In this document: positions 11,588 to 32,000 of the stretch, one piece after another
Position numbering within the stretch: the first letter of the stretch is position 1
Layout: every line of letters begins with the position of its first letter
Assembly: GCF_001412615.1 (NCBI RefSeq)
Contig: NZ_CP013011.1
Location: 750,001 to 782,000 of the forward strand
Direction: 5' to 3'
Source of the DNA: Pyrodictium delaneyi
GTDB lineage: Archaea; Thermoproteota; Thermoprotei_A; Sulfolobales; Pyrodictiaceae
DNA: 32,000 bases
The notes under the pieces: generated by a model
What the model was told of the DNA's origin: nothing
Databases searched by the model: none
Seen by the model: the letters and a program-made list of their open reading frames with translations, nothing else
Position numbers and translations under genes: made by a program

Positions 11588-11599
11588 CGTGGCAGCCCC

Positions 11600-12454
11600 C
11601 TAGACTCTAATTCTCGACACCATGGAGTCAACTATTACTATCACAGCAGCGCTCATCATTGGGACAAGTATAAAAGTAGAGAGGAACAATAGGCTGTCGA
11701 AGCTCAGCCCCGGTATAGGCTGGAACACTAACAAGAGCCCAACGACGCCTATGGCTACGGGGAGCATTACACTAACCGCTACGAAGACCTCAAGTATAGC
11801 CCCCAGGCTACTGGAGAGCTTCTCTATCTCTACTTCTAAGCCGTAGAGGTACTCCGTTATAGACGATAAGACTATCTCATTGACGCCAGTTCCCGTCCGA
11901 GCAGCGGCAGAAAGCCCTGCTAGAAGTCTACGGAGACTATACACTGGAGTGATTCGCGCAGCCTCCTCGAGGACGGTTTCCACTGGCATCCCAGCCTTAA
12001 TACCGGAAGCTATGTACTCGAGCTCAATGCGGAACTCACGGAGCTCCTTCAGCTCCTTCTCGTAGAGTCTCATAAATGACTCGGCGAGCCCGGCACCTGC
12101 GAGAAGCTTCGTAGCCAGCGCCTCGGCGAAGAGCAGGAACCGAGGCTCTAGACGTCCTCCACGGTTTTTATACGCGACAACAGGTATAGCAATGTAGAGC
12201 GCCAACATCAATACAAATGATGCGAATGCGGCTCCTAAGGCGGCAATGCTTGCTATAACTGGCTGAACTCCGAGTCTTAGGTACAAGGCTATCCAGACAA
12301 TCATAGCAACAGAGGAAACAACGATGACCATGACTACTAGGTAGGCTAAGGTGTAACGTTCCAGACTGGATGAGAGCCCGGACCCTAGTACGTGGTAGCG
12401 TAGGTCGGGGTTAAACCTTTCTCCCAGCCTCTCGAGCGCCTCCACTAGACCCAC
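11600..12454 (-). CDS. Type IV pilus platform protein, N-terminal half (TadC/FlaJ-like T2SSF domain)
   Basis: TM helices plus a cytoplasmic domain (RFLLFAEALATKLLAGAGLAESFMRLYEKELKELREF...GMPVETVLEEAARITP). The longest ORF starts at 12538 inside the ATPase gene. GTG codons at 12454 or 12445 are more plausible starts. It ends with a TAG that is in frame with the next ORF. Confidence 0.65.
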   Translation of the reverse strand: MGLVEALERLGERFNPDLRYHVLGSGLSSSLERYTLAYLVVMVIVVSSVAMIVWIALYLRLGVQPVIASIAALGAAFASFVLMLALYIAIPVVAYKNRGGRLEPRFLLFAEALATKLLAGAGLAESFMRLYEKELKELREFRIELEYIASGIKAGMPVETVLEEAARITPVYSLRRLLAGLSAAARTGTGVNEIVLSSITEYLYGLEVEIEKLSSSLGAILEVFVAVSVMLPVAIGVVGLLLVFQPIPGLSFDSLLFLSTFILVPMMSAAVIVIVDSMVSRIRV

Positions 12455-14030
12455 CGTCGGCAGCCTCCGCCTGGGCGGGCTTGAACACGTAAGGGTCAGT
12501 CTCGCTGACGGCCTCCTGGTATACGGAGTCGGGGTCACGCATATACATACGTATAATCTCGTGCAGCTCTAGCATATCCATCTTCTTTATAGCTGCCCAG
12601 CGTAGCACTGTGGCCCTCATCTCGAGGTCACGCCACACATCCCGAGGAGTCGTGACTAGAAGCTCTGCTATAGATTCCACGAACTTGCTGCTGCGAGATA
12701 CGAGCATCCATGTATCGCCTCGGCTATCCCACTGGAACAACCTACCTAATGTGACTTCATCATGCTCAACATCGTATAGCCTCGTCTCGTCAACTCTCGT
12801 AATCTTACGGTACACCCTGCCACCCTTCTCGATGCGGAGGATATTCACGTAGAGCTTCGCGGCCGCTATGAGGCTCTTAGGTACATTCATCGGCGGCGAA
12901 GCGAGTCTACGTATGAGTACACCTGCGGACTCAGCATGGACCGTGGTTAGGCCGCCGTGGCCCGTGGCTAGTGCCTGGAAGAAGGCGAAAGCCTCCCGGC
13001 TGCGTATCTCACCGACAATTATAACGTCGGGTCTCATACGGAGCGCGCTCTCTACCTGCGCCTGGAGTGTGACGTTTTGTACACCTGGCATATCGGAGAG
13101 ACGAGTATGCATGGCAGTCCAGTTATCGTGGAATGGTATATAGATCTCTGGTGTATCCTCAATAGTCACTATCTTGTACTCAGGCGGAAGCAGCATAGCA
13201 AGTGCGTTCAGGAGCGTGGTCTTGCCAGAGCCCGTGGGTCCATAGATAACAACACCCTGCTTATACTGTATAGCTGCCCAGAGAAGAGCCGCAACACCCT
13301 CGTCAAGTGTCCCACGGTTAATCAACTCGACGATTGTGAAGGGCTCAGCCCTGAACTTACGCACAGTAAAGCTGTGGCCTCGCCGCGACACTATATCAAG
13401 TACAATATGGACACGGTAGCCTTCAGGACGCAGCACACCCTCCACGATAGGCCTAGCGAGGCTAGGCTCACGGCCAGCCCGTAGCGCGAGCTTCATAACA
13501 ACTCGCTCTAGCTCGACCGGATCGCTAAAGGTAAGCCCGCTAGTCAGCCACTCGAACTCAGTATGATAAACGAACACTGGAGTGTAGAGCCCGTTGCACG
13601 ATATGTCTTCGATATAGGGATCCCTTATCATAGGGTCAAGACGGCCATAGCCAACAAGGTCTCGCGCTATATAGTAAGCTACGCCTAGAGCCTCCTGCTC
13701 GGGGTCACGACCTAGCCTCCTTAGCCTCCCCTTCCACCGCTTAATAACACTGTGAGCAAGCTTGTATGCCTCGCGTAATCCTTCGCCGAGATCCTCAAGC
13801 TCGGAGAATCTACGGAGAAGGCGTAAGTCGTTCATTATGCGTGAGAGAATTATGCTATAGGCCTTCTTACCTATATCCGTAAGCTGGGGCTCTTCGACAT
13901 GGTAGAAACGTCGGCCGTCAACGTCCTCAACTATGCGAACAACTATTGATGGTTCATCAAGAACACTATATTCGCTAAGAGTTTCGACAGTTCTCCCATC
14001 GGCTTGTTTGTTCTCGGCCAACCTCTCCAC
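12411..14030 (-). CDS. Type II/IV secretion-family ATPase (FlaI/ArlI/TadA-like pilus assembly ATPase)
   Basis: Walker A VIYGPTGSGKTTLLNAL, Walker B/Asp box RPDVIIVGEIR, His box ATGHGGLTTVHAES, and an N-terminal YHVEEPQLT motif typical of archaeal FlaI-like ATPases. GTG start. Confidence 0.9.
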   Translation of the reverse strand: MERLAENKQADGRTVETLSEYSVLDEPSIVVRIVEDVDGRRFYHVEEPQLTDIGKKAYSIILSRIMNDLRLLRRFSELEDLGEGLREAYKLAHSVIKRWKGRLRRLGRDPEQEALGVAYYIARDLVGYGRLDPMIRDPYIEDISCNGLYTPVFVYHTEFEWLTSGLTFSDPVELERVVMKLALRAGREPSLARPIVEGVLRPEGYRVHIVLDIVSRRGHSFTVRKFRAEPFTIVELINRGTLDEGVAALLWAAIQYKQGVVIYGPTGSGKTTLLNALAMLLPPEYKIVTIEDTPEIYIPFHDNWTAMHTRLSDMPGVQNVTLQAQVESALRMRPDVIIVGEIRSREAFAFFQALATGHGGLTTVHAESAGVLIRRLASPPMNVPKSLIAAAKLYVNILRIEKGGRVYRKITRVDETRLYDVEHDEVTLGRLFQWDSRGDTWMLVSRSSKFVESIAELLVTTPRDVWRDLEMRATVLRWAAIKKMDMLELHEIIRMYMRDPDSVYQEAVSETDPYVFKPAQAEAADGGSSGGAREAGRKV

Positions 14031-18384: not shown

Positions 18385-19569
18385 ATGATCAGGAGTTCTA
18401 TGAGGCTCGATATGAAGGGCTTTAGCCGTACTAAGCTAGCAGGAGCTATTGTAGTAGCGATTACGGCACTAGCAGCGTTAATAGTATTTGTATCAATAAT
18501 GGTTGATGTTGATGCGTCGAAAGTATATACAGAATTCCTCGAAGGCGGTTACACGATTACGAGTAGCAAGCTCTTCCAAGAAAAGGTTCTAGATACTGGC
18601 GGAGCCGTAGCTGTAATGTTCCGTTCAGACACGTGTCCGACATGTGAACGTATGTACCCGTACTGGAGGATGCTCGAGGAGAAGGCCTTGTCTCTAGGAT
18701 TTAAAGCCTATGATGTGAAACTCACACGGGACACTAGCACTATATTCAACAAGTACATGGTTCAAGATCTTCCTACATTTATAGTATTCTACGATGGCAA
18801 GCCCATAGCCAGGTACGTGGGTCCATTCACACCTGAGGACGGAAACGTGACCAGGGCGATGATAGACTGGGTGCTAGGTGCTCTCGAGGGCCGCAGTCTC
18901 GGGGCCGAGAAGGCTGAGTCGGCCACAGACCAGCAGACGTGGGCGGCGGGAGCGGCGTTAGCAGCCTCTGTAGCAGCTGCAGCGGCTGCCGGTGTTGTGT
19001 CGGCTTTCTCTCCTTGTGTCCTACCGCTGCTCATAACCAATAGTGTTGCTCTAGCTCGGCGTCGCAAGAATCCAGGTATAGCCGGCTGCTTAGTCTGCAG
19101 CCTCTCAGCCTTTGCCGGCATCATGGCTGTAGGTGTAGTGTTCCTATTAGCCTCCGGCCTCCTTGCCGGAGTACAAACAGTGCTCACGGGAATTGTAGCC
19201 GTGGCAGTGATGGCGGCAGGTATTTCATCACTGTTCGGCCTTCCTGCCGAGATACCAGTTACTCGCAGTATCCGCTCTGGCAGCCTAGCAGCATTTTGCG
19301 GACTTTACGGGTTCTTGGCTCTTCAGTGTAACCTTCCTCTAGTCGTCGGCGCGTTACTGCTAGTAGCGGGTAGTGGTGGCTTCACCCAGGGCTTGCTTGT
19401 GCTCCTTGCATTCTCGCTGGGTCTCTCCCTACCGCTTTCTGTAGCTGTCTACTTCGGCCCCCGTCTAGCTGTGCTAACGAGCCGAACGGGGGTACTCGAA
19501 AGACTAGGAGGCGCCGTGATGGTTCTCGCTGGAGCCGTGCTCCTAGCCTACAGCCTAGGCCTCATATAG
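18385..19569 (+). CDS. ccdA: Thioredoxin-domain/CcdA(DsbD-core) fusion: cytochrome c maturation thiol-reduction protein
   Basis: N-terminal TM, then an extracytoplasmic Trx fold with FRSDTCPTCERMYPYW (CxxC at nt 18634-18645). A 6-TM CcdA core follows, with both conserved Cys motifs (SAFSPCVLPLL and ALQCNLPLVVG). Confidence 0.85.
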   Translation: MIRSSMRLDMKGFSRTKLAGAIVVAITALAALIVFVSIMVDVDASKVYTEFLEGGYTITSSKLFQEKVLDTGGAVAVMFRSDTCPTCERMYPYWRMLEEKALSLGFKAYDVKLTRDTSTIFNKYMVQDLPTFIVFYDGKPIARYVGPFTPEDGNVTRAMIDWVLGALEGRSLGAEKAESATDQQTWAAGAALAASVAAAAAAGVVSAFSPCVLPLLITNSVALARRRKNPGIAGCLVCSLSAFAGIMAVGVVFLLASGLLAGVQTVLTGIVAVAVMAAGISSLFGLPAEIPVTRSIRSGSLAAFCGLYGFLALQCNLPLVVGALLLVAGSGGFTQGLLVLLAFSLGLSLPLSVAVYFGPRLAVLTSRTGVLERLGGAVMVLAGAVLLAYSLGLI

Positions 19570-19600
19570 CACAATTACGTATGAGAGGTGGTGCATTGTA

Positions 19601-22588
19601 ATGGCTATACATTATACGGGTATAGTCCCTGCGGCAGCTGCACTCGTCTACGTAGCGGCACTAGCTTACATGCTTCTCCGCCGCGATATTGAGATATCTG
19701 CTAAACTTGTAAAGAGGGCTGCTATACTCACTATAGTAGGCTGGCTAATATACTGGATACCATTTGCGATACTAGATTATAGTCTCCGCGAAGTATTCTG
19801 GAATACTAGTCCAGGGCTCCCTCTATGGATGAGGCTTGCCTCGGCCTGGGCGGGTGGAGGAGGAAGCCTATACCTATTCGCAACAATATCGGCCATAGCA
19901 ACACTCTATGTAATCCGTAGCCTAGCAGAAGCTAAGAAGCAGGATATTCTGGTAATGGGTACTGCTGCTGTAACGCTGGCAGCCATAGTTAGCGCATTCG
20001 CTAACGGCGCCTTCAGCGTGATGGAGGAACGCCCGGCTAGCGGTGCTGGGCTTAACCCGCTGCTTAAGAGTCCGTGGCTCTACCCGCACCCCCTCAGTAC
20101 CTTCGGCGGCTACGCGCTACTCGCGGTAGGCATGCTAGCACTGCTCGCGGGGCTACGCCGCCGCGGCTTCCTAGTCTACGAGCTTGGCTGGGCTCTCCTA
20201 ACCCTCGGCATCATGATTGGCGGCTACTGGAGCTACGAGACCTTCGGCTGGGGAGGCTACTGGGCATGGGACCCCGTAGAGACAAGCGAACTAATGGTAT
20301 GGCTTGCAGCCACGCTGCTACCTCACGCTATGGTGGCCGTGCCGAGCCTAGTCGCGTTCACCGAGTACCTAACGCTTTCTAGCGTATTCCTCGGCATGTA
20401 CGTGACGCGTAGCGGGCTCAGCCCTCTCCACAGCTTCGCCGCAGCCAACATAGGTGTGCTAGTACTCCTCGCCGTAGCCCTTGTTACACTCTTCCTCGCA
20501 TTCCGCCGGCTAGGCGAGTTCCGCCTCCCAAGCCTAGAGAATGTGCGAAGGAGCCCCTTCCAGGCAGGCATGCTGATAGCCACCATAGCCCTCTTCGCAG
20601 CGACCGTATTTGTCTACGCGACACTGCTTCTCCCCTCAGTACTCACTGCCGCCGGGTACGAGGCTAGTGTTCCTCAGATGCAGAGTGGTGTACGCTACTT
20701 CCACCCCGTACTCTACCCGCTACTAGTAGCGATGCTAGCAGCAATCCCGCTAGCATTCACAGGAGACAAACTAGGATGGAAAGGATACACAGCACTACTC
20801 CTAACAACAACAATAGTGTCGATACTAGCTGGGCTTGCGGCGTTTCAAGGCTCTCTTGTGCTTGCGCCACTCAGCAGCAGAGAGACAAATGCATTGATGG
20901 CCTTTGGGCTTCCCTGGGCTGGGCTTGCAGCTGCTGCAACGATACTCTACATAGCTCTGCGGCTACGTAACCGCGGCGGTAGACTCGCATGGGAGCGCAT
21001 GACGGGGATCAGTCTGCTACACCTGGGTCTAGCTGTTGTCGTCATCGGTGTCTTGCTCAGCGGTACATACTCGTTCAACGAGGCCTATTTCATCGATGCT
21101 AGTCTGAAGCCCGGCGAGCCTCTCGTACTCCCGAATGGTGTGAAAATAGAGCTTGTTGATTATCGGTTCGAGCTAAGCAACTCCATGGTAGACATTTATA
21201 CAGGCTATGCAGGGAGAGCGACTAGCTATCTTCTCGCCTGGAATACTTTGGCGATGTTGGCCTCAGACTACGGCCAGAAGGTTAAGCAAGCGCTTGAGGC
21301 TGAGAAGCTGCTTGAGGCAAACGAAACACTACGTACCCTTGTTGAGCTGGCTGTAAAGGCTCATATCTCCGCAACACGCGGCAACATCACTATAACAGGC
21401 GCCGCTAATGTGACAGGTATAGACCTATTCACGGGAGCCAAGACACCTATAGCAGAAAACATAAACATAACAATAGAACTCGTGAATCCAAGAGTTATGG
21501 CGGCCCTAGAGCCTCTACGGGACAATCTAGGCAGGGTAAAAGCCGCCAAACTCCGCATATACATTAGTGCTGATGAAGCCATTGTGGCGGGGCTACTGGG
21601 CGGCAACATTACAGCCCGCACGGTACTCGATATAGGGTTCGCGGATCCGGTAAAACTAGTGCTTGGGAATACATCGTTTGAGATAAGTCAATTGTACCTC
21701 TTAGCGACAGGCCATACCGGTCACCCAGCAGTAGAACATCGAGGCAATACCTTCACCTATAAGCCCGTAGTGGTTATCCCGAGCGGCCGTGTAGAGGTAG
21801 GAGGATACCATATCGCTAATCCGCTAGACGTGCCAGCGAGCCTCGCAGCTTACATAGAGAGTCGCCGGGATCCCTTCCTACAGAGACTTCTCAACAGCGG
21901 CCTAGCTGAGATACTGAGCAGCGATGCTGTAGTGAAAGCTCTGAACCCTCCAGGCTGTGAACCAGTAGCAGAGACACCTCACGGAGGTTGCTTCGGCTAC
22001 GTGGATGTACCTCGCACGGTTCCCGAGACTGCATGGCTAATTCTAGACCTACGTATTGAACGTGGTGATAAGGTACGTGAGGAGACTGTTGGACTCCGGT
22101 TCGAGTCGTACGGAGAAGTACAGGGTATACACGGCCTAGTAACTAAGGTTGTACATCCCCGGGTAGGACTCACAGACGTCTACATAGCGATACATGCGCC
22201 AGTGGTTACTCCAGAGTGGGGGGTCGCCGGGTACCATGAACTATTGGTCTACTATCTACACGCGGTGTACCAGTCGATGAACCTGACGCCTGCCCAGCGT
22301 ATAGCCCTAGCAGCACTCATGGCTTCAGGCTACATGATGGATACAGCTCTCTCGATAAACGATCCAGCTCAGCGCGGCCGCTTCCTCGAGCAAGCAGCGC
22401 TCGAACTCTACTTGCTGGCAGAGAGCTTCAATCCTCAGAACACCACCATAGTTCGGCAGGGACTCCCTATCCAGGTCAAACTGGTCCCGGGTGTAGCGCT
22501 AGTATGGTATGGTACAGTGATCATGGCGGCTTCAGCAGTCTATACAGCTATCATTGCAGCATATACTGCGAGGAAGGGACGCGCATAA
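19601..22588 (+). CDS. ccmF: CcmF-type cytochrome c haem lyase (System I) with a greatly expanded extracytoplasmic domain
   Basis: Collinear with E. coli CcmF (from memory): WMRLASAWAGGGGSLYLF; GLNPLLKSPWLYPHPLSTFGGY (P-His1); WWD motif WGGYWAWDPVETSELMVWL (nt 20249-20284); LLPHAM (TM-His1); YVTRSGLSPLHSFA (P-His2); LLHLGLAVVVIGV (TM-His2). It is 995 aa against roughly 650 for typical CcmF. Confidence 0.9.
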   Translation: MAIHYTGIVPAAAALVYVAALAYMLLRRDIEISAKLVKRAAILTIVGWLIYWIPFAILDYSLREVFWNTSPGLPLWMRLASAWAGGGGSLYLFATISAIATLYVIRSLAEAKKQDILVMGTAAVTLAAIVSAFANGAFSVMEERPASGAGLNPLLKSPWLYPHPLSTFGGYALLAVGMLALLAGLRRRGFLVYELGWALLTLGIMIGGYWSYETFGWGGYWAWDPVETSELMVWLAATLLPHAMVAVPSLVAFTEYLTLSSVFLGMYVTRSGLSPLHSFAAANIGVLVLLAVALVTLFLAFRRLGEFRLPSLENVRRSPFQAGMLIATIALFAATVFVYATLLLPSVLTAAGYEASVPQMQSGVRYFHPVLYPLLVAMLAAIPLAFTGDKLGWKGYTALLLTTTIVSILAGLAAFQGSLVLAPLSSRETNALMAFGLPWAGLAAAATILYIALRLRNRGGRLAWERMTGISLLHLGLAVVVIGVLLSGTYSFNEAYFIDASLKPGEPLVLPNGVKIELVDYRFELSNSMVDIYTGYAGRATSYLLAWNTLAMLASDYGQKVKQALEAEKLLEANETLRTLVELAVKAHISATRGNITITGAANVTGIDLFTGAKTPIAENINITIELVNPRVMAALEPLRDNLGRVKAAKLRIYISADEAIVAGLLGGNITARTVLDIGFADPVKLVLGNTSFEISQLYLLATGHTGHPAVEHRGNTFTYKPVVVIPSGRVEVGGYHIANPLDVPASLAAYIESRRDPFLQRLLNSGLAEILSSDAVVKALNPPGCEPVAETPHGGCFGYVDVPRTVPETAWLILDLRIERGDKVREETVGLRFESYGEVQGIHGLVTKVVHPRVGLTDVYIAIHAPVVTPEWGVAGYHELLVYYLHAVYQSMNLTPAQRIALAALMASGYMMDTALSINDPAQRGRFLEQAALELYLLAESFNPQNTTIVRQGLPIQVKLVPGVALVWYGTVIMAASAVYTAIIAAYTARKGRA

Positions 22589-22729: not shown

Positions 22730-23713
22730 TTGGAGCGCACGAGCCTCGTAATTCTGGTGCTACTTGTAGCTCTGGCAGCCTCGAATGCTGCCTGGGTGAC
22801 GCTCTACAGCCATAGCAAGTACAATACGGAGAACCTACTTGAGGAGAATCAGAGGCTGAGTCGGCAGCTAGAACTACTTGCCAACAAGGTTAAGGAATTA
22901 GATGAGAATAATACGAGACTTTTGCTCCAGCTCCGTGACATCAGTACTCGCTATCAGCGGCTCCTCGGTCTACTACAGCAAGCTAATAGCACTATAGCTA
23001 ATGCAGCTGTAGTGGCAAGGCTAATCGAAAACCTCAACACAAGCCTAACAACACTCTACACCTACACGAATACACATGCCTACTACACTCCGCGCGTGCG
23101 CAGCCTCTTCACACCAGGCTCTGTAGCAGACCTAGTAATGGCGATAACAGGGCACCCAGTTTACACCCAAGGCTCAGCACTCCAGGATATGGAGAAGCTC
23201 TACGACTGGGTCCAGGAGAACATACAAGACGCGCCGGACCATAACTTCGTTGCCGTGAAGGACCCGGAGTACGTGGAGATAGGTGGCTCCAAGTACATCT
23301 ACAGCTTCCAGATAGACATAGTAGACAACTATATACAGTCACCGTCAGAGACCCTACAACGCATGGCCGGTGACTGCGAGGACCAGTCGATACTGCTAGC
23401 GTCCATGTATAAGATCTACTTAGGAGACGTTGGTGATGCATGGGTTCTCTGCATGTTCTCGGATAAGTACGACCACTGCGTAGCAATAGCGTGGATCGGG
23501 CCTGAGAAGACCTTCATACTTGCAGATCCCACGCTAGACTACTACGGCAAAGCTGAGAGCCTACGTAGTGTTCTCGATGACTGGCTAGGATACGTGGGCA
23601 TGTCCATGGAACAGGTACGCAGGATGGTGGCGTTCAACAACAAGGAGTACATCGAGGATGTACCTTACAATGTCATTCACACAATTGAGGAGAAGACCCT
23701 TGGTCAAGGCTAG
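22730..23713 (+). CDS. Membrane-anchored coiled-coil exoprotein with a transglutaminase-like domain
   Basis: N-terminal TM (LVILVLLVALAASNAAW), a heptad-like region (LLEENQRLSRQLELLANKVKELDENNTRLLLQL), and a TGase triad candidate: MAGDCEDQSILLASMY (Cys216), YDHCVAIAW (His), FILADPT (Asp). TTG start. Confidence 0.7.
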   Translation: MERTSLVILVLLVALAASNAAWVTLYSHSKYNTENLLEENQRLSRQLELLANKVKELDENNTRLLLQLRDISTRYQRLLGLLQQANSTIANAAVVARLIENLNTSLTTLYTYTNTHAYYTPRVRSLFTPGSVADLVMAITGHPVYTQGSALQDMEKLYDWVQENIQDAPDHNFVAVKDPEYVEIGGSKYIYSFQIDIVDNYIQSPSETLQRMAGDCEDQSILLASMYKIYLGDVGDAWVLCMFSDKYDHCVAIAWIGPEKTFILADPTLDYYGKAESLRSVLDDWLGYVGMSMEQVRRMVAFNNKEYIEDVPYNVIHTIEEKTLGQG

Positions 23714-23732: not shown

Positions 23733-24464
23733 ATGCATCGCGTAGCTGCAGTCCTAGCCCTACTACTTATAGCAAAACTAGCTGTAATCGCGCCAGCACA
23801 GGCCGCGGAAAGACTGGAAGTCAAGATATATCATGCAGAGCTAGGCCCCTTCATACAGACACTCGCAGACGGCCGCCGGATAATGGTGAAGATAGACGTC
23901 TACTTCCCCGACACGCTTGTCTACCGTGGCCCCGAGGAGGGTCTTGGCACAGTAAACTTCACAATAACTACTAACTGGACTGGTCCCTGGGACGGCATAG
24001 TAACGGTACAAGTAGTCGACCCAGGCTACCACATTGATCCAACTACGTTCAAGCCCGTCGAGTCGGTGAATGCGTGGGCTGAGGGCGGCGACACGGTTGG
24101 TACTGGGGCGCTCCACATAGCTAGTGGCGCCTATACGGGCAGCGTCAAGAACATGACCGTGGTGTTGAGGCCCCACGAGCGCTACTTTACTGCTCCTAGT
24201 GGCGAGTACACGGCACAATACTTCTTCAAAGCCCGGCTAGCATTCTTCAAGCCTGATGGCAGCAAAGTGCTGGGAGGCGATGTGAACATCTACACGGATA
24301 GCGAAACAGCACCAATGATCAAACTGATAGTAGTCAAGGAACCCGAAGCTGGGGGCGACAATAGGCTGGCAGGCTCTATAGCACTAAATGCTGGTATAGC
24401 AGCGGCAGTAGTAGCTGTAGGCTACGCTGTAGTAGAGTATCTTGTGAGGCGTAAACGAGGCTAG
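23733..24464 (+). CDS. Secreted, C-terminally membrane-anchored beta-rich protein of unknown function
   Basis: Signal peptide MHRVAAVLALLLIAKLAVIAPAQA|AE, three N-X-T sequons, and a C-terminal TM plus basic tail (AAVVAVGYAVVEYLVRRKRG). AAGGTGA lies 6 nt before the ATG. Confidence 0.6.
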   Translation: MHRVAAVLALLLIAKLAVIAPAQAAERLEVKIYHAELGPFIQTLADGRRIMVKIDVYFPDTLVYRGPEEGLGTVNFTITTNWTGPWDGIVTVQVVDPGYHIDPTTFKPVESVNAWAEGGDTVGTGALHIASGAYTGSVKNMTVVLRPHERYFTAPSGEYTAQYFFKARLAFFKPDGSKVLGGDVNIYTDSETAPMIKLIVVKEPEAGGDNRLAGSIALNAGIAAAVVAVGYAVVEYLVRRKRG

Positions 24465-24473
24465 ACCCCGGTC

Positions 24474-24478
24474 TTTTT
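24474..24478 (+). terminator. Oligo-T tract after 23733-24464
   Basis: CCCCGGTCTTTTTGA lies 10 nt after the stop and is followed by a 374-nt non-coding spacer. Confidence 0.35.
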
Positions 24479-24764
24479 GACAACCAGTCGTACATAATGC
24501 CTGGGTATGTCCTTGGTTTCTCGGCCACAATATTCCATTGTAAAGCCTCCAGAATCCTACCATGCCCTTGTAGTCTTTGTCGCTGCTATGTCTCCCTCGG
24601 AGCCCCTAGTGTGCTCTAAACTGGGCTATCACTGCATTGTGTAGCATCATTTAATCTTTGTAAACTTATTCTAAGCTATTCTAGGGTTTTCATGTGTTAA
24701 AATGACTGCTCAGTACCAGGACGGAGACAAACTTTTATTGATGCATCAAATATCTCGCTCAACG

Positions 24765-24791
24765 TAAAAATAATAAATTAAATTTAAATAA
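24765..24791 (+). promoter_or_regulatory. AT-only block (TATA/BRE candidate) upstream of the octahaem cytochrome gene
   Basis: 27 consecutive A/T (TAAAAATAATAAATTAAATTTAAATAA) end 48 nt before the ATG. AAGGTGGGAGG immediately precedes the ATG at 24839. Confidence 0.45.
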
Positions 24792-24838
24792 CATGTAGAA
24801 CTCACATTGAAGCTGGACAAGCAGTGTAAGGTGGGAGG

Positions 24839-26827
24839 ATGCAAAAACCCTTAGCCAAGATTGTAGTCTTTTGGGTAATAGCACTCTTCCTCCTTCCCAG
24901 CATAGCACCCCTAGCAAGAGCAGCAACCTACAGCTGGGGCGAAGAGATCAGCCTCTCAGGTGTACAGCTAACAACAGAGTCTAAGGACTGTGTAGAGTGC
25001 CACATGCGTGCTACACCCTTCATAGTATACGACTGGTATAAGAGCAAGCACCGCATGGTCGGCGTAGGCTGCTACGAGTGTCACAGTGCTAAGCCCGGAA
25101 CAAGGCCCGACGTCTACGAGCACTACGGCTACTACATAACAACCCTAGTGACGCCCAAGCAGTGTGGCCGCTGCCACCCCGCAATAGCCGAGGAGTTCCA
25201 GAAGAGCGTCCACGCGTTCGCCGGAGTACACGCCTACGTGCTGAAGGAGGAGCCAGCCTACTGGATGATCCTAGCGAAGCAGTTTGGCTGGGACGAGCAC
25301 TTCAAGGTGCCAGCCGAGTATATCGAGACGGAGTGGGTACCTAAGATAGTGCGTGACTTCGTCGGCGATCAGAATTACGGTAAAGTCGTGCTAGAAGAGG
25401 ATCCAACCAACGCTATAATCCCGTACAACCCGCTTGGCCTAAGTATTGACAACTACGTTGCCCAGAAGGCCCTCTACATCTGGGGTATACGCGGCTGTCT
25501 AGGATGCCACGGCGTACGTATGGACGTCAAGGACGCGTTTGCCTTCCCGAGTCTAGACGAGCTAATGCAGTACATGAAGGAGGGCAAGGCTCCCGAGAAG
25601 GTAGTGTATGACCCGGCGTTCATGCACAACCACGGTATCGGCCGCGTGAACCCTGACGGCAGTCTAGGCAGCTGTGAGGCATGCCACCCGTATCACGGCT
25701 TCAGCGTAAAGATAGCCAGGAAGGGCGCCTACCAGGCATGTGGCCGCTGCCACACGGGACCAGACCATCCGAACGACGAGCAGTGGAGTAAGAGCGTACA
25801 CGGCGCCATATTCTGGGGCGAGGCCGAGGACTGGGACTGGGACAAGCCTGTCAACAACTGGATGCCAGGCCGCGACTACAGGGCACCCACATGTGTAACC
25901 TGCCACATGGCTGCAGTGTTCAACGAGCGTGGCGAGGTCAAGTATGCTAGCAGCCACGACGTAGCCATAATCAGCAAGTTCAAGCTAGGCAAGTGGGTAT
26001 ACACTCTACCGCGTGTAGCTGGCCTGCCAGATTTCGCAATACCGACAGCCACAGCGACCCAGGCACCTGTATTCAAGAGCCCGACAACAGGCGACACGAT
26101 AACACTAGTCTACCCAGAGCCCGACTGGAAGGCACGCAGACAGAGAGCAATTGACATGTGTGCCCAGTGCCACACCAAGGAGTACGCGGCGGCATGGTTG
26201 AAGACCTACGACTGGATGATCATACTAGTAGACTACATGAGAGACGAGTACGTACTAACCGTAGCCAACATGCTGAAGGCAAAGGGTCTATTCACACCAA
26301 TGGACGAGTGGATGGTGAGAAACCTAGGTGCTATGGCCAATAGGCCCACTAAGATGTCTGCAGCACACTTCGGCCCCGACTTCACCTGGTGGGAGGGCAT
26401 AATGCACTTCGCTGAGAAGATAGAGGAGTGGCTAATCGATGTATACGAGAGGCCTGCTGTAGCCAAGAAGGCGCCAGAGATACGCGAGAAGATCGAAGAG
26501 ATACTGCCATGGTTCAAGGAGCAGTGGGAGGGCGAGGGCAGCACTGGCACAGTACACAGCCTTGCAGAGGTGAAGACAGCTATCGCTAAGGCCGTCGAGG
26601 CGCCGAGCATAGAGGCCTATGCTCAGAAGGTAGAGACCCTAGAACCGCCAGCAAAGCCGCTAGTAGCCAAGGCGCCGGTGAAGACCCTAGGTGAGGTCAG
26701 CGAGTTCAGCCTAACACTGCCAGGCAGCGATGCTAGCCGCGAGGTGCCGGTAGCAGTATTCGCGGTGTTCCCGGCAGCACCTCTACTACTAGTCTTCGTA
26801 TCCAGAAAGCGCGCTGTAGCAGCATAA
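24839..26827 (+). CDS. Octahaem c-type cytochrome of the hydroxylamine oxidoreductase (HAO) family, membrane-anchored
   Basis: Eight CXXCH motifs (CVECH, CYECH, CGRCH, CLGCH, CEACH, CGRCH, CVTCH, CAQCH). Several blocks are collinear with Nitrosomonas HAO (see findings). It has a signal peptide (...LARA|AT) and a C-terminal stalk plus TM anchor ([21 protein letters not shown]). Confidence 0.9.
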   Translation: [662 protein letters not shown]

Positions 26828-26999: not shown

Positions 27000-28898
27000 T
27001 TGTACTGGGAGCCAGCACTTTACCTAGCTCTCTCGGCTGAGGCGATCGCAGCAGCCTACGCGGTAGGTAGGGGGATGCGAGAGGGGTATGATAGACCCTT
27101 CGAGACTGGACCGGTATACCGTGTAGGCCTCGTGCTTACGGCGGTTTCTTTCCTGCTCGCGCTACGCTTCGACGTAATGGTGACTGTGCCTAGTCTCATG
27201 CTGCTCGCGTCTAGTCTAGCAGTCCTCGCGGGAGCCCGGCTACGGTTGAGAATGAGTCCAGTTGAAGCACTAGCCTCCACCATAGCCTTTTACTCGTTCG
27301 CTCTAGCATCGCTCGCTGCCCGTGCAGCAGTGCTCGACCTGGATCCACGTGGTGAAGCACTACTTCCGTGGGTTCTGTTAACGCTGGCGGCTGGCTGGGG
27401 CCTACTAGCGGCATTGGTAACCATGAGCGAACCCCAGAGGAGCATTGCTGCAGTCATGGGTCTACTTGGCGGTGTAGGACTGGCGGCTCTAGGTTTCTGG
27501 CTGCTCTTCAATACTAGGATCGGATCGCCGCTTTACGGGGACGCACTCAGTATGGCTCTGCTCGCGCTGCTAGTAACTGGTGCTGCCATTGCTTCAAGGT
27601 TATCCCCATACCTGGTGCTGGCATCCGGCGTGATTGCGGCTCTCCTCGCGGGCCGCTCGCTTCTCGCGGGTGGTGTCCCCTACATAGCTTGCACAGGTAG
27701 CTGCGGCTCCCTGGCCACGGCATGGCTCATATTCGTCATAGTCGTGGCCGCGCCTCGGCTATACCTCGAAGCCGAGACGGTACGTGGAAGGATGCGTGCT
27801 GCTGGGCTGGAGACAGTGTTCTCGCCCTCCACACTTGCCTCGGCTTCGGTGCTGCTGGCGGGACTAGCTGCATGGGCTTCACTTCAAGGCTCGTTGAGCA
27901 TAGGTACCGTAGCTGCTGTGAGCGTATTAGTGGCCTCAGCTGCTGCTGGCGGGGGCTCTGCTTCGGCGCTTGTGCTATTCCTAGGCGCTATAGCTGCTAT
28001 CTACAGTCCCGCACTAGGCATAGTGGTTTCTGCTATAGCGGCTGTTGCGGTTCCAGCACTGCTACGGAACCAGCGACTAGGTCCATTAAATCCCCCTAAG
28101 GGCCTCGTGTACGGGCTATTGCTGGTGGTCATTGGGCTTGCTGCAGGAGGCTACATAGCAGCTACGCTTGGTCACAGTATGCAAGCTGAAGCCTCGATAA
28201 CAGTAGCTGGGCTTGGGCCCGCTAAGCTAGTGCAGCCGCCAAGCGACGAGGTGACGCACGCCTTCTTCCAGCTCTATCTCGGCGTCAAGAACGAGACATT
28301 GCTATACGCGCTACTCGCGCCGAAGCTGGGCAAAGATGAGGCACTAAAAATGGTTGAGTTTGCTCATGCCGTCCGCTTGGCAGCTGAAAAGCGTGGGATA
28401 AACGACCCCTATAACATAACCGAGCTTGATATACCTCGTAAAATGCCTAGCCTCGAGACCAGGATCGAAACCAATGGCGTATCAGCGACAGTGAATGTAC
28501 CGGCTTCAAGTATACTCTACGGCCATCCATACACTAGCGGTGTCGAGAGGGCCGGGCTTGACCTCGTATCCGTCACGCTGCCTAGCAATGTCACTAAGGC
28601 ATTGACTGATATCTACCTCCGCTTAGTCTCTGATCCAAAGCTAGCTGGTGATGATGCTCTTCGCTACACGATATTTGCCGCAATGGCTGTAAGCTGGAGA
28701 GAAACGGGCACCCTGAATATGACGGCGCAGCTGATCTTCGATTCGTTGCTCGGTAACAATACTGTGGCTAACCACGTGTCTTCGGAGGTTAGCGTCGCAA
28801 GAGCCTCGTTAGGCGTTATTGCCCTAGTTGTCTACATGGGGTGCCTGGTTGCTGCTCCTGTCGCACCACTTCTGGTCAATGTTCGTAGAAGCGGCTAG
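27000..28898 (+). CDS. Large polytopic membrane protein with a C-terminal extracytoplasmic domain and terminal TM; unknown function
   Basis: 632 aa. About 12 Ala/Leu/Gly-rich TM helices (aa 1-400), a ~200-aa soluble domain with five N-X-S/T sequons, and a final TM (LGVIALVVYMGCLVAAPVAPLLV). TTG start with AGGGGAG 7 nt upstream. No CXXCH motif. Confidence 0.6.
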   Translation: MYWEPALYLALSAEAIAAAYAVGRGMREGYDRPFETGPVYRVGLVLTAVSFLLALRFDVMVTVPSLMLLASSLAVLAGARLRLRMSPVEALASTIAFYSFALASLAARAAVLDLDPRGEALLPWVLLTLAAGWGLLAALVTMSEPQRSIAAVMGLLGGVGLAALGFWLLFNTRIGSPLYGDALSMALLALLVTGAAIASRLSPYLVLASGVIAALLAGRSLLAGGVPYIACTGSCGSLATAWLIFVIVVAAPRLYLEAETVRGRMRAAGLETVFSPSTLASASVLLAGLAAWASLQGSLSIGTVAAVSVLVASAAAGGGSASALVLFLGAIAAIYSPALGIVVSAIAAVAVPALLRNQRLGPLNPPKGLVYGLLLVVIGLAAGGYIAATLGHSMQAEASITVAGLGPAKLVQPPSDEVTHAFFQLYLGVKNETLLYALLAPKLGKDEALKMVEFAHAVRLAAEKRGINDPYNITELDIPRKMPSLETRIETNGVSATVNVPASSILYGHPYTSGVERAGLDLVSVTLPSNVTKALTDIYLRLVSDPKLAGDDALRYTIFAAMAVSWRETGTLNMTAQLIFDSLLGNNTVANHVSSEVSVARASLGVIALVVYMGCLVAAPVAPLLVNVRRSG

Positions 28899-28961: not shown

Positions 28962-30272
28962 ATGCTCTTTCCTATAAAACTGGTGGAGGGAGGCGAGGCT
29001 ACAGTGGACACCACGAAAGCCGCCAGGACGCTGATAATAGTAGCGGTATTTCTAGTAGCACTCTTTGCTTACTGGCAGCTGACAGTGCCAGGATACTTTA
29101 AGGGCGTAGAGTTATGTGGCAAAGGCTGCCACGTGACCAGCGTCCTCGACTACGAGAAGATAAACCACCCCTTCTGGTGTATAGGCTGCCACGGGTTCGG
29201 CGTAAAGAGCGAGATCCTGCCCGGGATCCCGCTCTACCGGGACCACGAGCTAGAGATGCTAGTGGAGGAGCACGGCGAGTGCCTAATGTGCCATCGTGTA
29301 CCCGGAGAGTTCCACTGGAAGCACATTAACGCAACTGAGGAAGACCTAGCCAAGCTAGAGCTAATGCGCCCGGTACAGTGTACAGATTGTCACACCACAG
29401 CCTACCATGGAGGTCACAAGGACAGGCCAAAGGATGACGTATGTCTAAAATGTCACGATGCCGAGAAGCTTCATCCAGATATGAATAAAAAATTGGTCGC
29501 AGCTTGCACCAAGTGCCACTCTGAGGAGCCTGCTGTAGACTGGGCGATTTTCAAGAAGGGTCAGATAGGCTACGGGTTTGTAGCTGACGCAGGCCTAGCA
29601 CTTGCAGCAGACCTCGGCGTAGTGAAAACAACGGCCCCGGGCTGTCTCCTTTGCCACAATATACCGGAGACACAGGGTCACCTAAAACACATGGGCAAAG
29701 AATACAATGGTAAACGGGTAGAGTGTCTAGATTGTCACAAGAATGATATACCCCATGGCGAGAAGATAGGAACGAACGTATGTCTCGACTGTCATAATCC
29801 CAAGGAGACTAAATGCCATGACAAGGGCTTTGAGGAGTTCCTACTAGACTGTTACCGGTGCCATGGCGGCTTCGCGCTGGCTAATGAGACGCTCTACCTG
29901 GCCGGCAAAGGCTGTGAAGGCTGTCACGGCGACACTCTCGAGAAGGTTGTAGGCATAGGGCTACACTCTAGCCACATACCCTACTATGCGTGCAGCAAAT
30001 GCCATGACGTTGAATCGGGAAGCCATAGCCGATTCGTAGAGTCTGCAAGCGATCCAGAGAAGTGCCTCGACTGCCACACGAAGGCCGCAGGAGTCAAGTC
30101 TGAGGCGCTTCAGGGACTGAGAACTAGTACAGCCCTATCATTCAGCGAAGACATTAGACATGTAGAGCTAGTGGAGAAGGCTAAAGGCAATTGCCTCAAG
30201 TGCCACGACGAGTGGCATGTGGCAGGCAAGCCTAGGATAATCTACGGCAAGAGTAAAGGGGAGGGAAGCTAG
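28962..30272 (+). CDS. Membrane-anchored multihaem c-type cytochrome (13 CXXCH + 1 CX3CH)
   Basis: N-terminal TM anchor (TLIIVAVFLVALFAYWQLTV). Motifs in order: CGKGCH (CX3CH), CIGCH, CLMCH, CTDCH, CLKCH, CTKCH, CLLCH, CLDCH, CLDCH, CYRCH, CEGCH, CSKCH, CLDCH, CLKCH, in 436 aa. Many extra His residues are available as distal ligands. Confidence 0.9.
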   Translation: MLFPIKLVEGGEATVDTTKAARTLIIVAVFLVALFAYWQLTVPGYFKGVELCGKGCHVTSVLDYEKINHPFWCIGCHGFGVKSEILPGIPLYRDHELEMLVEEHGECLMCHRVPGEFHWKHINATEEDLAKLELMRPVQCTDCHTTAYHGGHKDRPKDDVCLKCHDAEKLHPDMNKKLVAACTKCHSEEPAVDWAIFKKGQIGYGFVADAGLALAADLGVVKTTAPGCLLCHNIPETQGHLKHMGKEYNGKRVECLDCHKNDIPHGEKIGTNVCLDCHNPKETKCHDKGFEEFLLDCYRCHGGFALANETLYLAGKGCEGCHGDTLEKVVGIGLHSSHIPYYACSKCHDVESGSHSRFVESASDPEKCLDCHTKAAGVKSEALQGLRTSTALSFSEDIRHVELVEKAKGNCLKCHDEWHVAGKPRIIYGKSKGEGS

Positions 30273-30326: not shown

Positions 30327-31073
30327 TTGAGTGTTGTCAGGGCTGAGGCTGAAGGGGGACGGGCCCCTAGCTGGCTAGAGGAACACATGTGGCGCCGCTT
30401 ACGCGCACTATTCGACTTGGTACTTCAGCTCAGCGTTCTCAGACGTCGCCGCGACCTAGGTGAGTGGCTTGTAGCGTGGCTGACTTACCTAGGTCTTGTT
30501 GGCGCTATACTTACAGCAATAATAACAGCAGCCACCCGTGGTGTAGTGCTTGCAGCTAATACGGTCCTAAGGCCTCATGCACTTCCTATAATCAGCCCAG
30601 CGCTCGAGAAACTGTTCATAAGCTGGCCACAGCTAGCAATAGGTATGGGTTATCATGCGCATATAATCACAGCGCTATACTTTGCAGCACCAGCCTATAC
30701 AGCAGCTCTAGTAGCAGCCTTCCTGCTAAAGGACGAATGGCTGCGCAGCTTCCTATTCCCGCGAGGAATTAACGCTAGGGACGTCTCCGACCACTTGTTG
30801 CTAGTGCTAAGCTTCCTCACAGCCTGGGCTGCGGCAGTAATAGCGCCACAGATGGCGGCTGAGGGTGCACTGGTGCCCGGGCTACAAGCACTTGCACCAC
30901 ACATCGCTATAGGAACCTTCTGGATAATCTACTCGCTAGCGATACGCGGACTAGCCTACCGTGTAGTAGGCACAGCGCTGACACTGCTATACGTGGTTGT
31001 ATTCAATCGCTACCCGGAAAGAGTGTTCAGAGATATCTTTGAAGAAGATCCATGGGTAAGCCTACTACGCTAA
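30327..31073 (+). CDS. Integral membrane protein, candidate b-type cytochrome/quinol-interacting subunit (speculative)
   Basis: 248 aa with 5-6 TM helices. His residues lie in or next to the helices (RPHALP, GYHAHIITALYF, DHLLLVLSF, APHIAIGTFW). TTG start 11 nt after GGAGGTG. It starts 54 nt after the 13-haem gene with no T-tract between them. Confidence 0.45.
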   Translation: MSVVRAEAEGGRAPSWLEEHMWRRLRALFDLVLQLSVLRRRRDLGEWLVAWLTYLGLVGAILTAIITAATRGVVLAANTVLRPHALPIISPALEKLFISWPQLAIGMGYHAHIITALYFAAPAYTAALVAAFLLKDEWLRSFLFPRGINARDVSDHLLLVLSFLTAWAAAVIAPQMAAEGALVPGLQALAPHIAIGTFWIIYSLAIRGLAYRVVGTALTLLYVVVFNRYPERVFRDIFEEDPWVSLLR

Positions 31074-31396: not shown

Positions 31397-32000
31397 ATGC
31401 TCTGGTTCGTGTTGACAACTGGGGCTTGCAACTTGCGCTGCCAGTACTGTGGCGGGGGGTTTCCCCCAGAATACTCGCCCCCTCGTCCAGTATATGGGGC
31501 CGAGAAGCTCGTAGAGTCCATCAGACGGCTAGACCCGGATCCGGTGATCTTCTTCTACGGCGGAGAGCCACTAGTTAACCCGAAGCTGATAATGGAGGTT
31601 ATGGATCTCCTGCCGGAGGCCCGTTACGGGATACAGACCAACGGGCTACTCTACCGCCAGCTCCCCGAGGAGTACTGGGCCCGGTTCCACCGCGTCCTGC
31701 TCAGCATAGACGGCGTCGAGGAGATCACTGACCGGTGGAGGGGCCGCGGCGTCTACCGCCGCGTACTGAAGGCCCTAAGGTTCCTCAGAGAGCTGCAGAG
31801 GCGCCGAGGAGGCCCCGGGGCTGTCATAGCCAGGATGGCGGTGACCCATGACACGGTTATCGACAGAGATGTGCTGCACCTCCTCCTGGACCTTGGTTTC
31901 GACAAGGCTCACTGGCAGCTTGACGCGGTCTGGAGCCCGCCGTGGCCCATAGGCCGCTGGGCTAGGGAGAGTTACCTCCCGGGGCTAAGGAGGCTCGCAA
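31397..32000 (+). CDS. Radical SAM domain protein, 3'-truncated by the window edge (not in the supplied ORF track)
   Basis: My own translation of the frame starting at ATG 31397 gives MLWFVLTTGACNLRCQYCGGGFPPEYSPPRPVYGAEKLVESIRRLDPDPVIFFYGGEPLVNPKLIMEVMDLLPEARYGIQTNGLL...SIDGVEEITDRWRGRGVYRRVLKAL..., open to 32000. It has a CX3CX2C cluster motif (31427-31450) and FYGGEPL and QTNG motifs. Confidence 0.8.
   Translation, partial: MLWFVLTTGACNLRCQYCGGGFPPEYSPPRPVYGAEKLVESIRRLDPDPVIFFYGGEPLVNPKLIMEVMDLLPEARYGIQTNGLLYRQLPEEYWARFHRVLLSIDGVEEITDRWRGRGVYRRVLKALRFLRELQRRRGGPGAVIARMAVTHDTVIDRDVLHLLLDLGFDKAHWQLDAVWSPPWPIGRWARESYLPGLRRLA

Follow-up and report, generated by a model that had tools for sequence, protein, structure and literature searches.

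The octahaem cytochrome locus

The 32-kb stretch of the Pyrodictium delaneyi genome analysed here (contig NZ_CP013011.1, positions 750,001 to 782,000; hereafter the window, in whose numbering coordinates are given) encodes a multihaem cytochrome at 24839..26827 (+). The open reading frame (ORF) has an ATG start, and its 662-aa product is 100% identical to Pyrde_0784 of P. delaneyi, which is annotated as hypothetical. Eight CxxCH motifs, far above chance, were identified at aa 51, 78, 109, 220, 279, 301, 352 and 441, and all 16 cysteines fall inside them; CxxCK or CxnCH variants were not found in the protein sequence. An original prediction, made from the letters of the DNA alone, had recognized this reading frame and its eight motifs, with start positions for CLGCH (nt 25496) and CEACH (nt 25673) that are both exact, and had read the product as a divergent HAO-family octahaem cytochrome. 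The evidence presented below makes the assignment of Pyrde_0784 as a genuine HAO-family octahaem cytochrome c, with all eight predicted haem motifs in HAO order, secure at the level of sequence.

The predicted protein begins with a signal peptide and continues for 221 aa after haem 8 (Table 1). Three long helices in this tail of the AlphaFold2 model (447-481, 487-508 and 513-536; pLDDT >90) are consistent with the oligomerisation helices of HAO and NrfA, as these are described in publications on the family. The stalk rich in A, P, K and E and the transmembrane (TM) anchor that had been proposed for the C-terminus are both present: these four residues make up 45% of positions 565-633, compared with 32% of the whole protein, and the hydrophobic segment 634-657 follows. 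Two minus-strand ORFs within the gene (25664-25957 and 26233-26610) were treated as spurious because they are antisense to a conserved coding gene.

Table 1. Pyrde_0784 features and neighbouring genes, in order along the window.
Feature	Coordinates	Strand	Description
Cytochrome c maturation genes	18385..22588	+	Pyrde_0780, thioredoxin-CcdA/DsbD-like fusion; Pyrde_0781, 995-aa CcmF/NrfE-family haem lyase
Pyrde_0782	22730..23713	+	N-terminally anchored, coiled-coil, transglutaminase/Cys-protease-like; AGDCEDQAIL core
Pyrde_0783	23733..24464	+	Exported beta-sandwich protein, C-terminal TM anchor
Signal peptide	24839..24922	+	aa 1-28; hydrophobic segment 1-29, N-terminus conserved in orthologues; cleavage site predicted
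Haem 1 motif CVECH	24989..25003	+	aa 51-55; invariant in 120 homologues
Haem 2 motif CYECH	25070..25084	+	aa 78-82; invariant in 120 homologues
Haem 3 motif CGRCH	25163..25177	+	aa 109-113; invariant in 120 homologues
Insertion between haems 3 and 4	25238..25480	+	About aa 134-214; insert ~55-65 aa; compact, six short helices (pLDDT 86-98, DSSP)
Haem 4 motif CLGCH	25496..25510	+	aa 220-224; invariant in 120 homologues; position of the five-coordinate catalytic haem in the HAO family
Extra segment after haem 4	25523..25600	+	About aa 229-254; low-confidence loop 231-236; brings the haem 4 to haem 5 spacing to 59
Haem 5 motif CEACH	25673..25687	+	aa 279-283; invariant in 120 homologues
Haem 6 motif CGRCH	25739..25753	+	aa 301-305; invariant in 120 homologues
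Asp309-His310	25763..25768	+	Alignment equivalent of the active-site acid/base pair Asp267-His268 of Nitrosomonas europaea HAO
Haem 7 motif CVTCH	25892..25906	+	aa 352-356; invariant in 120 homologues
Haem 8 motif CAQCH	26159..26173	+	aa 441-445; invariant in 120 homologues
C-terminal helical region	26177..26530	+	aa 447-564; DSSP of model, pLDDT >90
W517-W518	26387..26392	+	Occupy the position of the cross-linking Tyr467 of N. europaea HAO
Stalk	26531..26737	+	aa 565-633; low-confidence/flexible, two short helices; Pyrodictiaceae clade only
C-terminal TM anchor and basic tail RKRAVAA	26738..26824	+	Hydrophobic segment aa 634-657, then RKR
Pyrde_0785	27000..28898	+	~11-TM membrane protein, sequon-rich extracytoplasmic domain
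Pyrde_0786	28962..30272	+	N-terminally anchored cytochrome with 13 CxxCH, weakly DmsE/HmcA-like; candidate electron donor
Pyrde_0787	30327..31073	+	5-TM protein; candidate haem-b/quinol-interacting subunit

Family assignment

The Pfam model Multi-haem_cyto (PF13447) matches Pyrde_0784 at 4e-18, with 66 bits against a cut-off of 21.9. A phmmer search of the PDB returned, beyond a marginal cytochrome c554 (E 0.24), only entries of the HAO family: 4qo5 (3e-47), 6h5l (7e-23), the HAO of Nitrosomonas europaea (NeHAO; 4e-12) and HOX and HDH (around 1e-12). When a profile of 120 homologues was compared with the PDB, 4qo5 was matched over its full length at 7e-108, ahead of 6h5l (1e-47) and NeHAO 1fgj (8e-46). 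The NCBIfam equivalogs, among them HDH, NrfA and DmsE, all remained far under their cut-offs (for HDH, 62 bits against 900).

The AlphaFold2 model, a monomer that does not include the haems, has a pLDDT of 80.8 and a pTM of 0.79. Its only significant Foldseek matches in the PDB are 4qo5 (4e-17) and 6h5l (8e-9). We take this result as support for homology rather than as a verified superposition, because the TM-scores are only 0.24-0.34.

PDB entry 4QO5 is IhOCC (Igni_0955), the membrane-associated octahaem nitrite/hydroxylamine reductase of the archaeon Ignicoccus hospitalis, which has been grouped with HAO and HDH by the architecture of its haem core. It is the best match to Pyrde_0784 by sequence, profile and fold. 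Thus, as judged from these comparisons, the nearest solved and closest characterised relative is IhOCC and not NeHAO, the protein that the original prediction had used for comparison. The NeHAO blocks quoted in that prediction are nevertheless real, as they occur in the sequence of PDB 1fgj/4fas (our source for NeHAO blocks and spacers), including CTQCHSERFARSYL.

In a rough neighbour-joining tree without bootstraps, Pyrde_0784 and its Pyrodictiaceae relatives form a clade that is sister to a bacterial group from Caldithrix and Aquificota. These two clades together adjoin the IhOCC group, the nearest described lineage, apart from the bulk of the epsilon-Hao-like proteins. The bacterial sister group (37% identity) is closer to Pyrde_0784 than is IhOCC (~34% over aligned blocks).

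Haem ligands and active site

According to the family description in PMC8042395, HAO-family proteins carry seven bis-His haems and one five-coordinate, His-ligated catalytic haem 4. The fourth motif of Pyrde_0784 aligns with CLACH of IhOCC (C167) and CTMCH of NeHAO (C229). Outside the motifs, four histidines (H71, H286, H321 and H373) are invariant among the 120 homologues and two more (H95 and H125) near-invariant, and H510, at the position of NeHAO His459, is conserved in the Pyrodictiaceae clade and the sister group. These seven histidines are candidate distal ligands for the seven bis-His haems. Asp309 is invariant in the 120 sequences; His310 is invariant in the clade and the sister group and is replaced by Val in IhOCC. 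At the second-sphere position of NeHAO Tyr334, which is Arg in the bulk of epsilon-Hao, Pyrde_0784 has Gly384 with Lys residues on either side.

The P460 cofactor of the oxidative enzymes HAO, HOX and HDH arises when a tyrosine, Tyr467 in NeHAO, is cross-linked to the catalytic haem of an adjacent subunit. Pyrde_0784 has no Tyr between residues 472 and 535, a range that includes this position. Thus, we place it in the cross-link-less, reductive branch and not with the HAO/HDH/HOX-type oxidases; by its sequence it is a reductive-type member lacking the P460-forming tyrosine. Overall, the predicted catalytic site looks intact. We considered whether a sixth ligand supplied by the insertions might cap haem 4 and turn the protein into a pure electron carrier, and found no support for this, as no clade-invariant His, Met, Lys or Cys occurs there.

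The oxidative proteins (NeHAO, 1FGJ/4FAS; Kuenenia HOX, 4N4J, and HDH, 6HIF) share the family, the haem order and the conserved blocks with Pyrde_0784, including in NeHAO the equivalents of D309-H310 and H510, but NeHAO differs at the cross-link position and in its spacers and is only weakly similar in sequence. IhOCC resembles Pyrde_0784 in being crenarchaeal, in having eight haems in HAO order, in lacking the cross-link Tyr and in sharing His265 (NHG motif). In IhOCC the pair is Asp-Val and the residues aligned with H71 and H125 are not His; Pyrde_0784 has Asp-His and both histidines. It also has the stalk and C-terminal TM anchor that are not seen in the solved IhOCC chain. The signatures of the IhOCC subfamily (long insert between haems 1 and 2, Asp-Val, altered axial ligands) are thus absent from Pyrde_0784, which in its haem ligands and active site is more canonical than IhOCC, but with a helical insertion between haems 3 and 4 and a membrane tether.

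Like Pyrde_0784, epsilon-Hao (Caldithrix abyssi Cabys_2556, Nautilia profundicola) and the Kuenenia HAOr (Kustc0458, 6H5L), the second-best PDB and Foldseek match, lack the cross-link and have the Asp-His pair. A typical epsilon-Hao is a soluble protein of ~440-490 aa, often encoded next to nap, whereas Pyrde_0784 is anchored and is induced on iron rather than nitrate (see below). Kuenenia HAOr reduces nitrite to nitric oxide (NO), and IhOCC and epsilon-Hao reduce nitrite and hydroxylamine to ammonium.

Spacers and insertions

Spacings were counted throughout from the first Cys of one haem motif to the first Cys of the next, with Pyrde_0784 as the query. They are 27/31/111/59/22/51/89 in Pyrde_0784, 66/27/57/10/20/51/50 in NeHAO, 56/31/57/48/20/49/123 in IhOCC and 27/30/44/38/20/50/47 in a typical epsilon-Hao. 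Relative to NeHAO, the contrasts pointed out in the original prediction hold: 59 instead of 10 between haems 4 and 5 (4→5), longer 3→4 and 7→8 spacers and a short 1→2 spacer. NeHAO is, however, the wrong yardstick. Among the top 120 homologues, four spacings are nearly constant (1→2, 27; 2→3, 30-31; 5→6, 20-22; 6→7, 49-52), so that a 1→2 spacing of 27 is normal, and epsilon-Hao and HAOr agree with Pyrde_0784 at 1→2 (27), 5→6 (about 20) and 6→7 (about 50). IhOCC matches it at 2→3 and approximately at 6→7 (49-51), and departs from it at 1→2, 3→4 and 7→8.

The 4→5 spacing varies from 38 to 72 across the 120 homologues (42 in the sister group). It follows that 59 is ordinary for the branch and that the 10 of NeHAO is the outlier. 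The original prediction had treated the 59-residue spacer as distinctive, while allowing that it might prove typical of an HAO subclade already described; it is typical of the cross-link-less branch.

The 3→4 spacer does set the proteins apart. It measures 111-126 in the Pyrodictiaceae clade and 44-66 in the bulk of the family (57 in both IhOCC and NeHAO); the sister group, with proteins of ~500-540 aa, has 92-117. The insertion is accordingly absent from the bulk of epsilon-Hao-like proteins, IhOCC and NeHAO, and partly present in the Caldithrix/Aquificota group. Residues W142, W151, Y161, D188, T190 and W215, in or near the insertion, are invariant in the clade, and W151, P189 and P198 are invariant across both the clade and the bacterial sister group. 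Beyond haem 8 the chain is also long, extending for 204-246 residues in the clade and about 120-185 elsewhere. On these alignments, the clade-specific features are the helical 3→4 insertion and the long C-terminal tail with its stalk and anchor.

The absence of N-X-S/T sequons from the protein had also been proposed as meaningful. The count of zero is correct, but the significance attached to it is not: Pyrde_0784 is poor in Asn, 1.08 sequons are expected from its composition, and such an outcome arises about one time in three (P(<=0)=0.31). We therefore regard it as unremarkable and rejected sequon depletion as a signal. Orthologues carry 0-2 sequons. Nor is every neighbouring exported protein sequon-rich, as had been stated; several do exceed expectation about 3-fold, but there are 2 sequons in the 13-haem protein (0.84 expected) and none in a 248-aa protein.

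Taken together, the observation underlying the original prediction is confirmed, and its interpretation is partly supported.

Distribution of the long form

The family comprises 1130 representatives at 50% clustering (E<=1e-3), of which one full-length representative has the long form seen in Pyrde_0784. Among species-representative genomes, the long form was found only in Pyrodictiaceae/Desulfurococcales. Identities to the P. delaneyi protein are 74% in a Hyperthermus sp. metagenome-assembled genome (MAG), 68% in a Pyrodictiaceae MAG, 51% in a Pyrodictium sp. and 46-48% in two further MAGs. P. abyssi encodes a 94%-identical copy within an identical cluster.

In the orthologue of Pyrolobus fumarii (locus L085, 10014-12013; Logan SRR064176), a frameshift near residue ~403 interrupts the reading frame. 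It leaves a 418-aa ORF with 7 CxxCH motifs (81% identical) and a second ORF, of 231 aa, that opens with haem motif 8, and the true frame runs on across the frameshift. The interruption may have arisen as a sequencing error, or the gene may be a pseudogene or be split in a programmed manner; the '6-heme' protein cited for Pyrfu_0785-0788 is probably this orthologue.

In two bacterial sister loci (L003, 6910-9602, and L004, 2419-5111), the octahaem gene lies 15 bp 3' of a Porin_5 (PF16930) gene, forming a porin-cytochrome pair. In a Caldithrix-like locus (L010, 843-3424), a 348-aa ORF with a signal peptide is located 30 bp 5' of it, and in other loci of the group a small exported protein is encoded 3' of it. 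Linkage to nap or nrf was not seen in the sister-group loci examined. As a clue to function, this bacterial gene context was not decisive.

Gene neighbourhood

Genes for cytochrome c maturation are encoded upstream of the octahaem gene (Table 1). Pyrde_0782 and Pyrde_0783 are located directly 5' of it in every examined archaeal locus that reaches far enough upstream (the arrangement was recorded in L001, L002, L006-L009, L014, L085 and L086). The published 'Mcc' partners Pyrde_0785-0787 are less tightly linked to the octahaem gene than these two. In the published proteome, Pyrde_0783 was not detected and Pyrde_0782 was detected but not quantified. An attempt to assign a function to Pyrde_0783 by its fold was abandoned, as the model is a generic beta-sandwich and its Foldseek matches (the luminal domain of TMEM106B, arrestins) are uninformative.

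The intergenic gap at 24465-24838 places 375 nt between Pyrde_0783 and the octahaem gene, compared with 20 nt between Pyrde_0782 and Pyrde_0783. A gap of this size suggests a separate promoter for the octahaem gene, in keeping with an induction much stronger than that of its neighbours. An Rfam scan of the window, including the gap, gave no match.

Downstream are Pyrde_0785, Pyrde_0786 and Pyrde_0787. The last has no Pfam or NCBIfam match, and its motifs RPHALP, FISWPQ, GxHxHIIT and DH are invariant in five orthologues. Synteny of the cluster is kept in P. abyssi, the Hyperthermus MAG and others.

Published physiology

In the literature searched, the locus tag Pyrde_0784 is cited by Kashyap & Holden (2021) alone. 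These authors identified the protein by mass spectrometry in a 140-kDa haem-stained band that was seen only in ferrihydrite-grown cells, and found it to be membrane-associated and about 60 times as abundant on ferrihydrite as on nitrate. The replicate values in their supplement are 0/3.5/10.9/31.9 on nitrate and 138/201/275/170 on ferrihydrite (log2 fold change 5.93, adjusted P 0.002). In their model, Pyrde_0784-0787 form a novel 'Mcc' complex through which methylmenaquinol electrons reach molybdopterin enzymes. The authors detected Nap and NO reductase and mention no nitrite reductase; hydroxylamine and HAO do not appear in the paper. The genome paper of strain Hulk describes the orthologue as having 8 haems and a mass of 76.8 kDa, states that no cytochrome of the strain is homologous to known c-type cytochromes and calls this one, 'a cytochrome c7 protein containing an NrfH domain', the strain's nearest approach to a nitrite reductase. 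Strain Hulk does not use nitrite, and the type strain Su06 is reported there to convert nitrate to N2.

As the two published accounts found report either no known homology or a 'cytochrome c7/NrfH-domain' protein, we count the HAO/IhOCC identity of Pyrde_0784 as new at the level of annotation; the protein itself is already published. In other words, it had been characterised by proteomics and its membership of the HAO family overlooked, and nothing here shows new chemistry. The identity reframes a published model of archaeal iron respiration that was built on a 'novel' complex, and it makes 4QO5 and 6H5L available as solved templates. Predictions that follow from it are a trimer with 24 haems in all, a high-spin haem and measurable activity as a nitrite, hydroxylamine or NO reductase. 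Conversely, the induction on iron oxide supplies physiological data for this branch of the HAO family in archaea.

The computed mass of mature Pyrde_0784 with eight haems is about 76 kDa, compared with the 140-kDa band. Given the lack of a cross-link Tyr, this suggests an oligomer stable in sodium dodecyl sulfate or some other covalent link. It is speculative, but the always-adjacent transglutaminase-like protein might form such a link and so explain the migration at 140 kDa.

Proposed function

We lean, with modest confidence, towards Pyrde_0784 being an extracytoplasmic electron distributor or terminal reductase of Fe(III) respiration that is built on a nitrite-reductase scaffold. The protein is predicted to be exported by the Sec pathway and anchored on the outer side of the cytoplasmic membrane through a flexible stalk of ~70 aa and the C-terminal TM helix. 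As in other family members, it may trimerise via the three long C-terminal helices (447-536) to give an array of 24 haems. Electrons from methylmenaquinol could enter through the His-rich, 5-TM Pyrde_0787 and/or the polytopic Pyrde_0785, then pass to the 13-haem Pyrde_0786 and on to the octahaem protein, which would serve as electron distributor and/or terminal reductase in the respiration of Fe(III) oxide. Reduction of nitrite, hydroxylamine or NO in vitro is to be expected of such a protein, as its active site looks intact. OcwA offers a precedent: this iron-oxide reductase, from the same cytochrome superfamily, can reduce nitrite in vitro as well.

With the cell-surface iron reductases OcwA (Thermincola potens, 6I5B) and OmhA (Carboxydothermus ferrireducens), which derive from NrfA/c554-like modules, the analogy is functional only. 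They share with Pyrde_0784 the broad NrfA/HAO superfamily and an association with Fe(III)-oxide reduction by thermophiles, and have kept penta-coordinate haems and nitrite reductase activity in vitro, but they belong to another clade, have nine or eleven haems with two of them penta-coordinate, and occur in Gram-positive hosts. Neither was detected as a sequence or fold match (phmmer, profile and Foldseek against the PDB). Pyrde_0784 may be a second case, after OcwA/OmhA, of nitrogen-cycle cytochrome scaffolds in the metal respiration of thermophiles.

Several points weigh against this assignment to iron respiration. Kashyap & Holden (2021) propose the molybdopterin enzymes, and not Pyrde_0784, as the terminal ferric reductases, and their supplement shows no significant induction of Pyrde_0785-0787 on ferrihydrite. 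These three genes are adjacent to the octahaem gene in some genomes and 2-7 kb away in others. The apparently intact Asp-His site and the lack of a candidate sixth ligand are what would be expected of a small-molecule reductase rather than a pure electron carrier. The Foldseek superposition is poor (TM-scores of 0.27/0.34 for 4qo5, root-mean-square deviation about 20 Å). Iron respiration is not documented in the literature searched for P. abyssi, which has the 94%-identical orthologue, and thus the module may be a general respiratory component.

A more specific version, which we put forward tentatively and consider rather unlikely, is that the HAO fold was recruited in hyperthermophilic Pyrodictiaceae as an outward-facing ferric-oxide reductase, or as the last hub before one, with the insertion and the stalk and anchor as adaptations for contact with partners or minerals. 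If true, this would by extension suggest that the abundant IhOCC-type cytochromes of sulfur-respiring Crenarchaeota without known nitrogen metabolism are electron-transfer proteins and not enzymes of the nitrogen cycle.

It is also possible, although we think it unlikely, that Pyrde_0784 is primarily a nitrogen-oxide reductase, converting nitrite to NO, or nitrite and hydroxylamine to ammonium, either as a missing step of denitrification or for detoxification of NO and hydroxylamine. Characterised members of the cross-link-less branch do reduce nitrite, and throughout the clade and the sister group the Asp-His pair does not vary. The Hulk genome has no obvious nitrite reductase, and its authors name the orthologue as the nearest candidate, in a species whose type strain is reported to take nitrate to N2 and whose proteome contains Nap and NO reductase. 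If Pyrde_0784 were the missing enzyme, this gap in P. delaneyi denitrification would be closed. However, the protein is ~60-fold scarcer on nitrate than on ferrihydrite, Hulk carries the orthologue yet does not use nitrite, and no nap, nir or nor genes were identified in the 32-kb window, whereas epsilon-Hao genes adjoin nap.

The original prediction had instead raised the possibility that the substrate pocket of a divergent HAO is altered in shape by an insertion next to the catalytic haem; such a reading, with a novel small-molecule specificity as its outcome, appears improbable to us. Segments specific to the clade do flank haem 4: one of about 80 aa precedes it, and another follows that adds about 17-21 aa by comparison with the sister group and typical epsilon-Hao, or 11 by comparison with IhOCC. 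The 3→4 insertion has a confidently predicted fold and contains clade-invariant aromatic residues, and Gly384 with its flanking Lys replaces the second-sphere Tyr. Yet the 4→5 spacer falls within the range of the branch, the 3→4 insertion is partly common to bacterial relatives, the poor superposition does not fix its position relative to haem 4, and the gene context points to no substrate. Least likely, in our view, is that Pyrde_0784 serves as a general periplasm-side electron hub, or as a sulfite, polysulfide or thiosulfate reductase, and is not specific to iron: the whole cluster is kept in P. abyssi and in uncultured Hyperthermus/Pyrodictiaceae, and published biochemical work on P. abyssi and P. 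brockii found c-type cytochromes in their H2:sulfur oxidoreductase complexes, but the abundance on ferrihydrite is strongly differential, type strain Su06 does not reduce sulfur (Kashyap & Holden, 2021), no sulfur-metabolism genes were found in the window and the P. fumarii orthologue is split.

Other features of the window

The C-terminal anchors of Pyrde_0784 (26770-26809) and Pyrde_0785 (28850-28895, AAPVAPLLVNVRRSG) have P-x-A-P-L-L in common, and orthologues show V/I-P-x-x-x-P. An archaeosortase-type sorting signal was considered for the Pyrde_0784 anchor, but no NCBIfam sorting-signal model matches even at E<=10. A gene for a rhomboid protease comes after the cluster in locus L001.

Also encoded in the same window as the cytochrome genes is glutamyl-tRNA reductase HemA (1219-2625, -), which catalyses the first step in haem synthesis. 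At 10691-14030 (-) and 8745-10292 (-) are two T2SSF-like genes together with genes for T2SSE-like and KaiC-like ATPases. They constitute an assembly cluster of the type IV pilus/archaellum type and lie in a stretch whose GC content is 0.45-0.50 compared with ~0.55 elsewhere. At ~31400-32000 (+), a radical-SAM-like ORF begins (CNLRCQYC) and runs past the end of the window; genes of the radical SAM type are found beside the cluster in L002, L085 and L086 as well.

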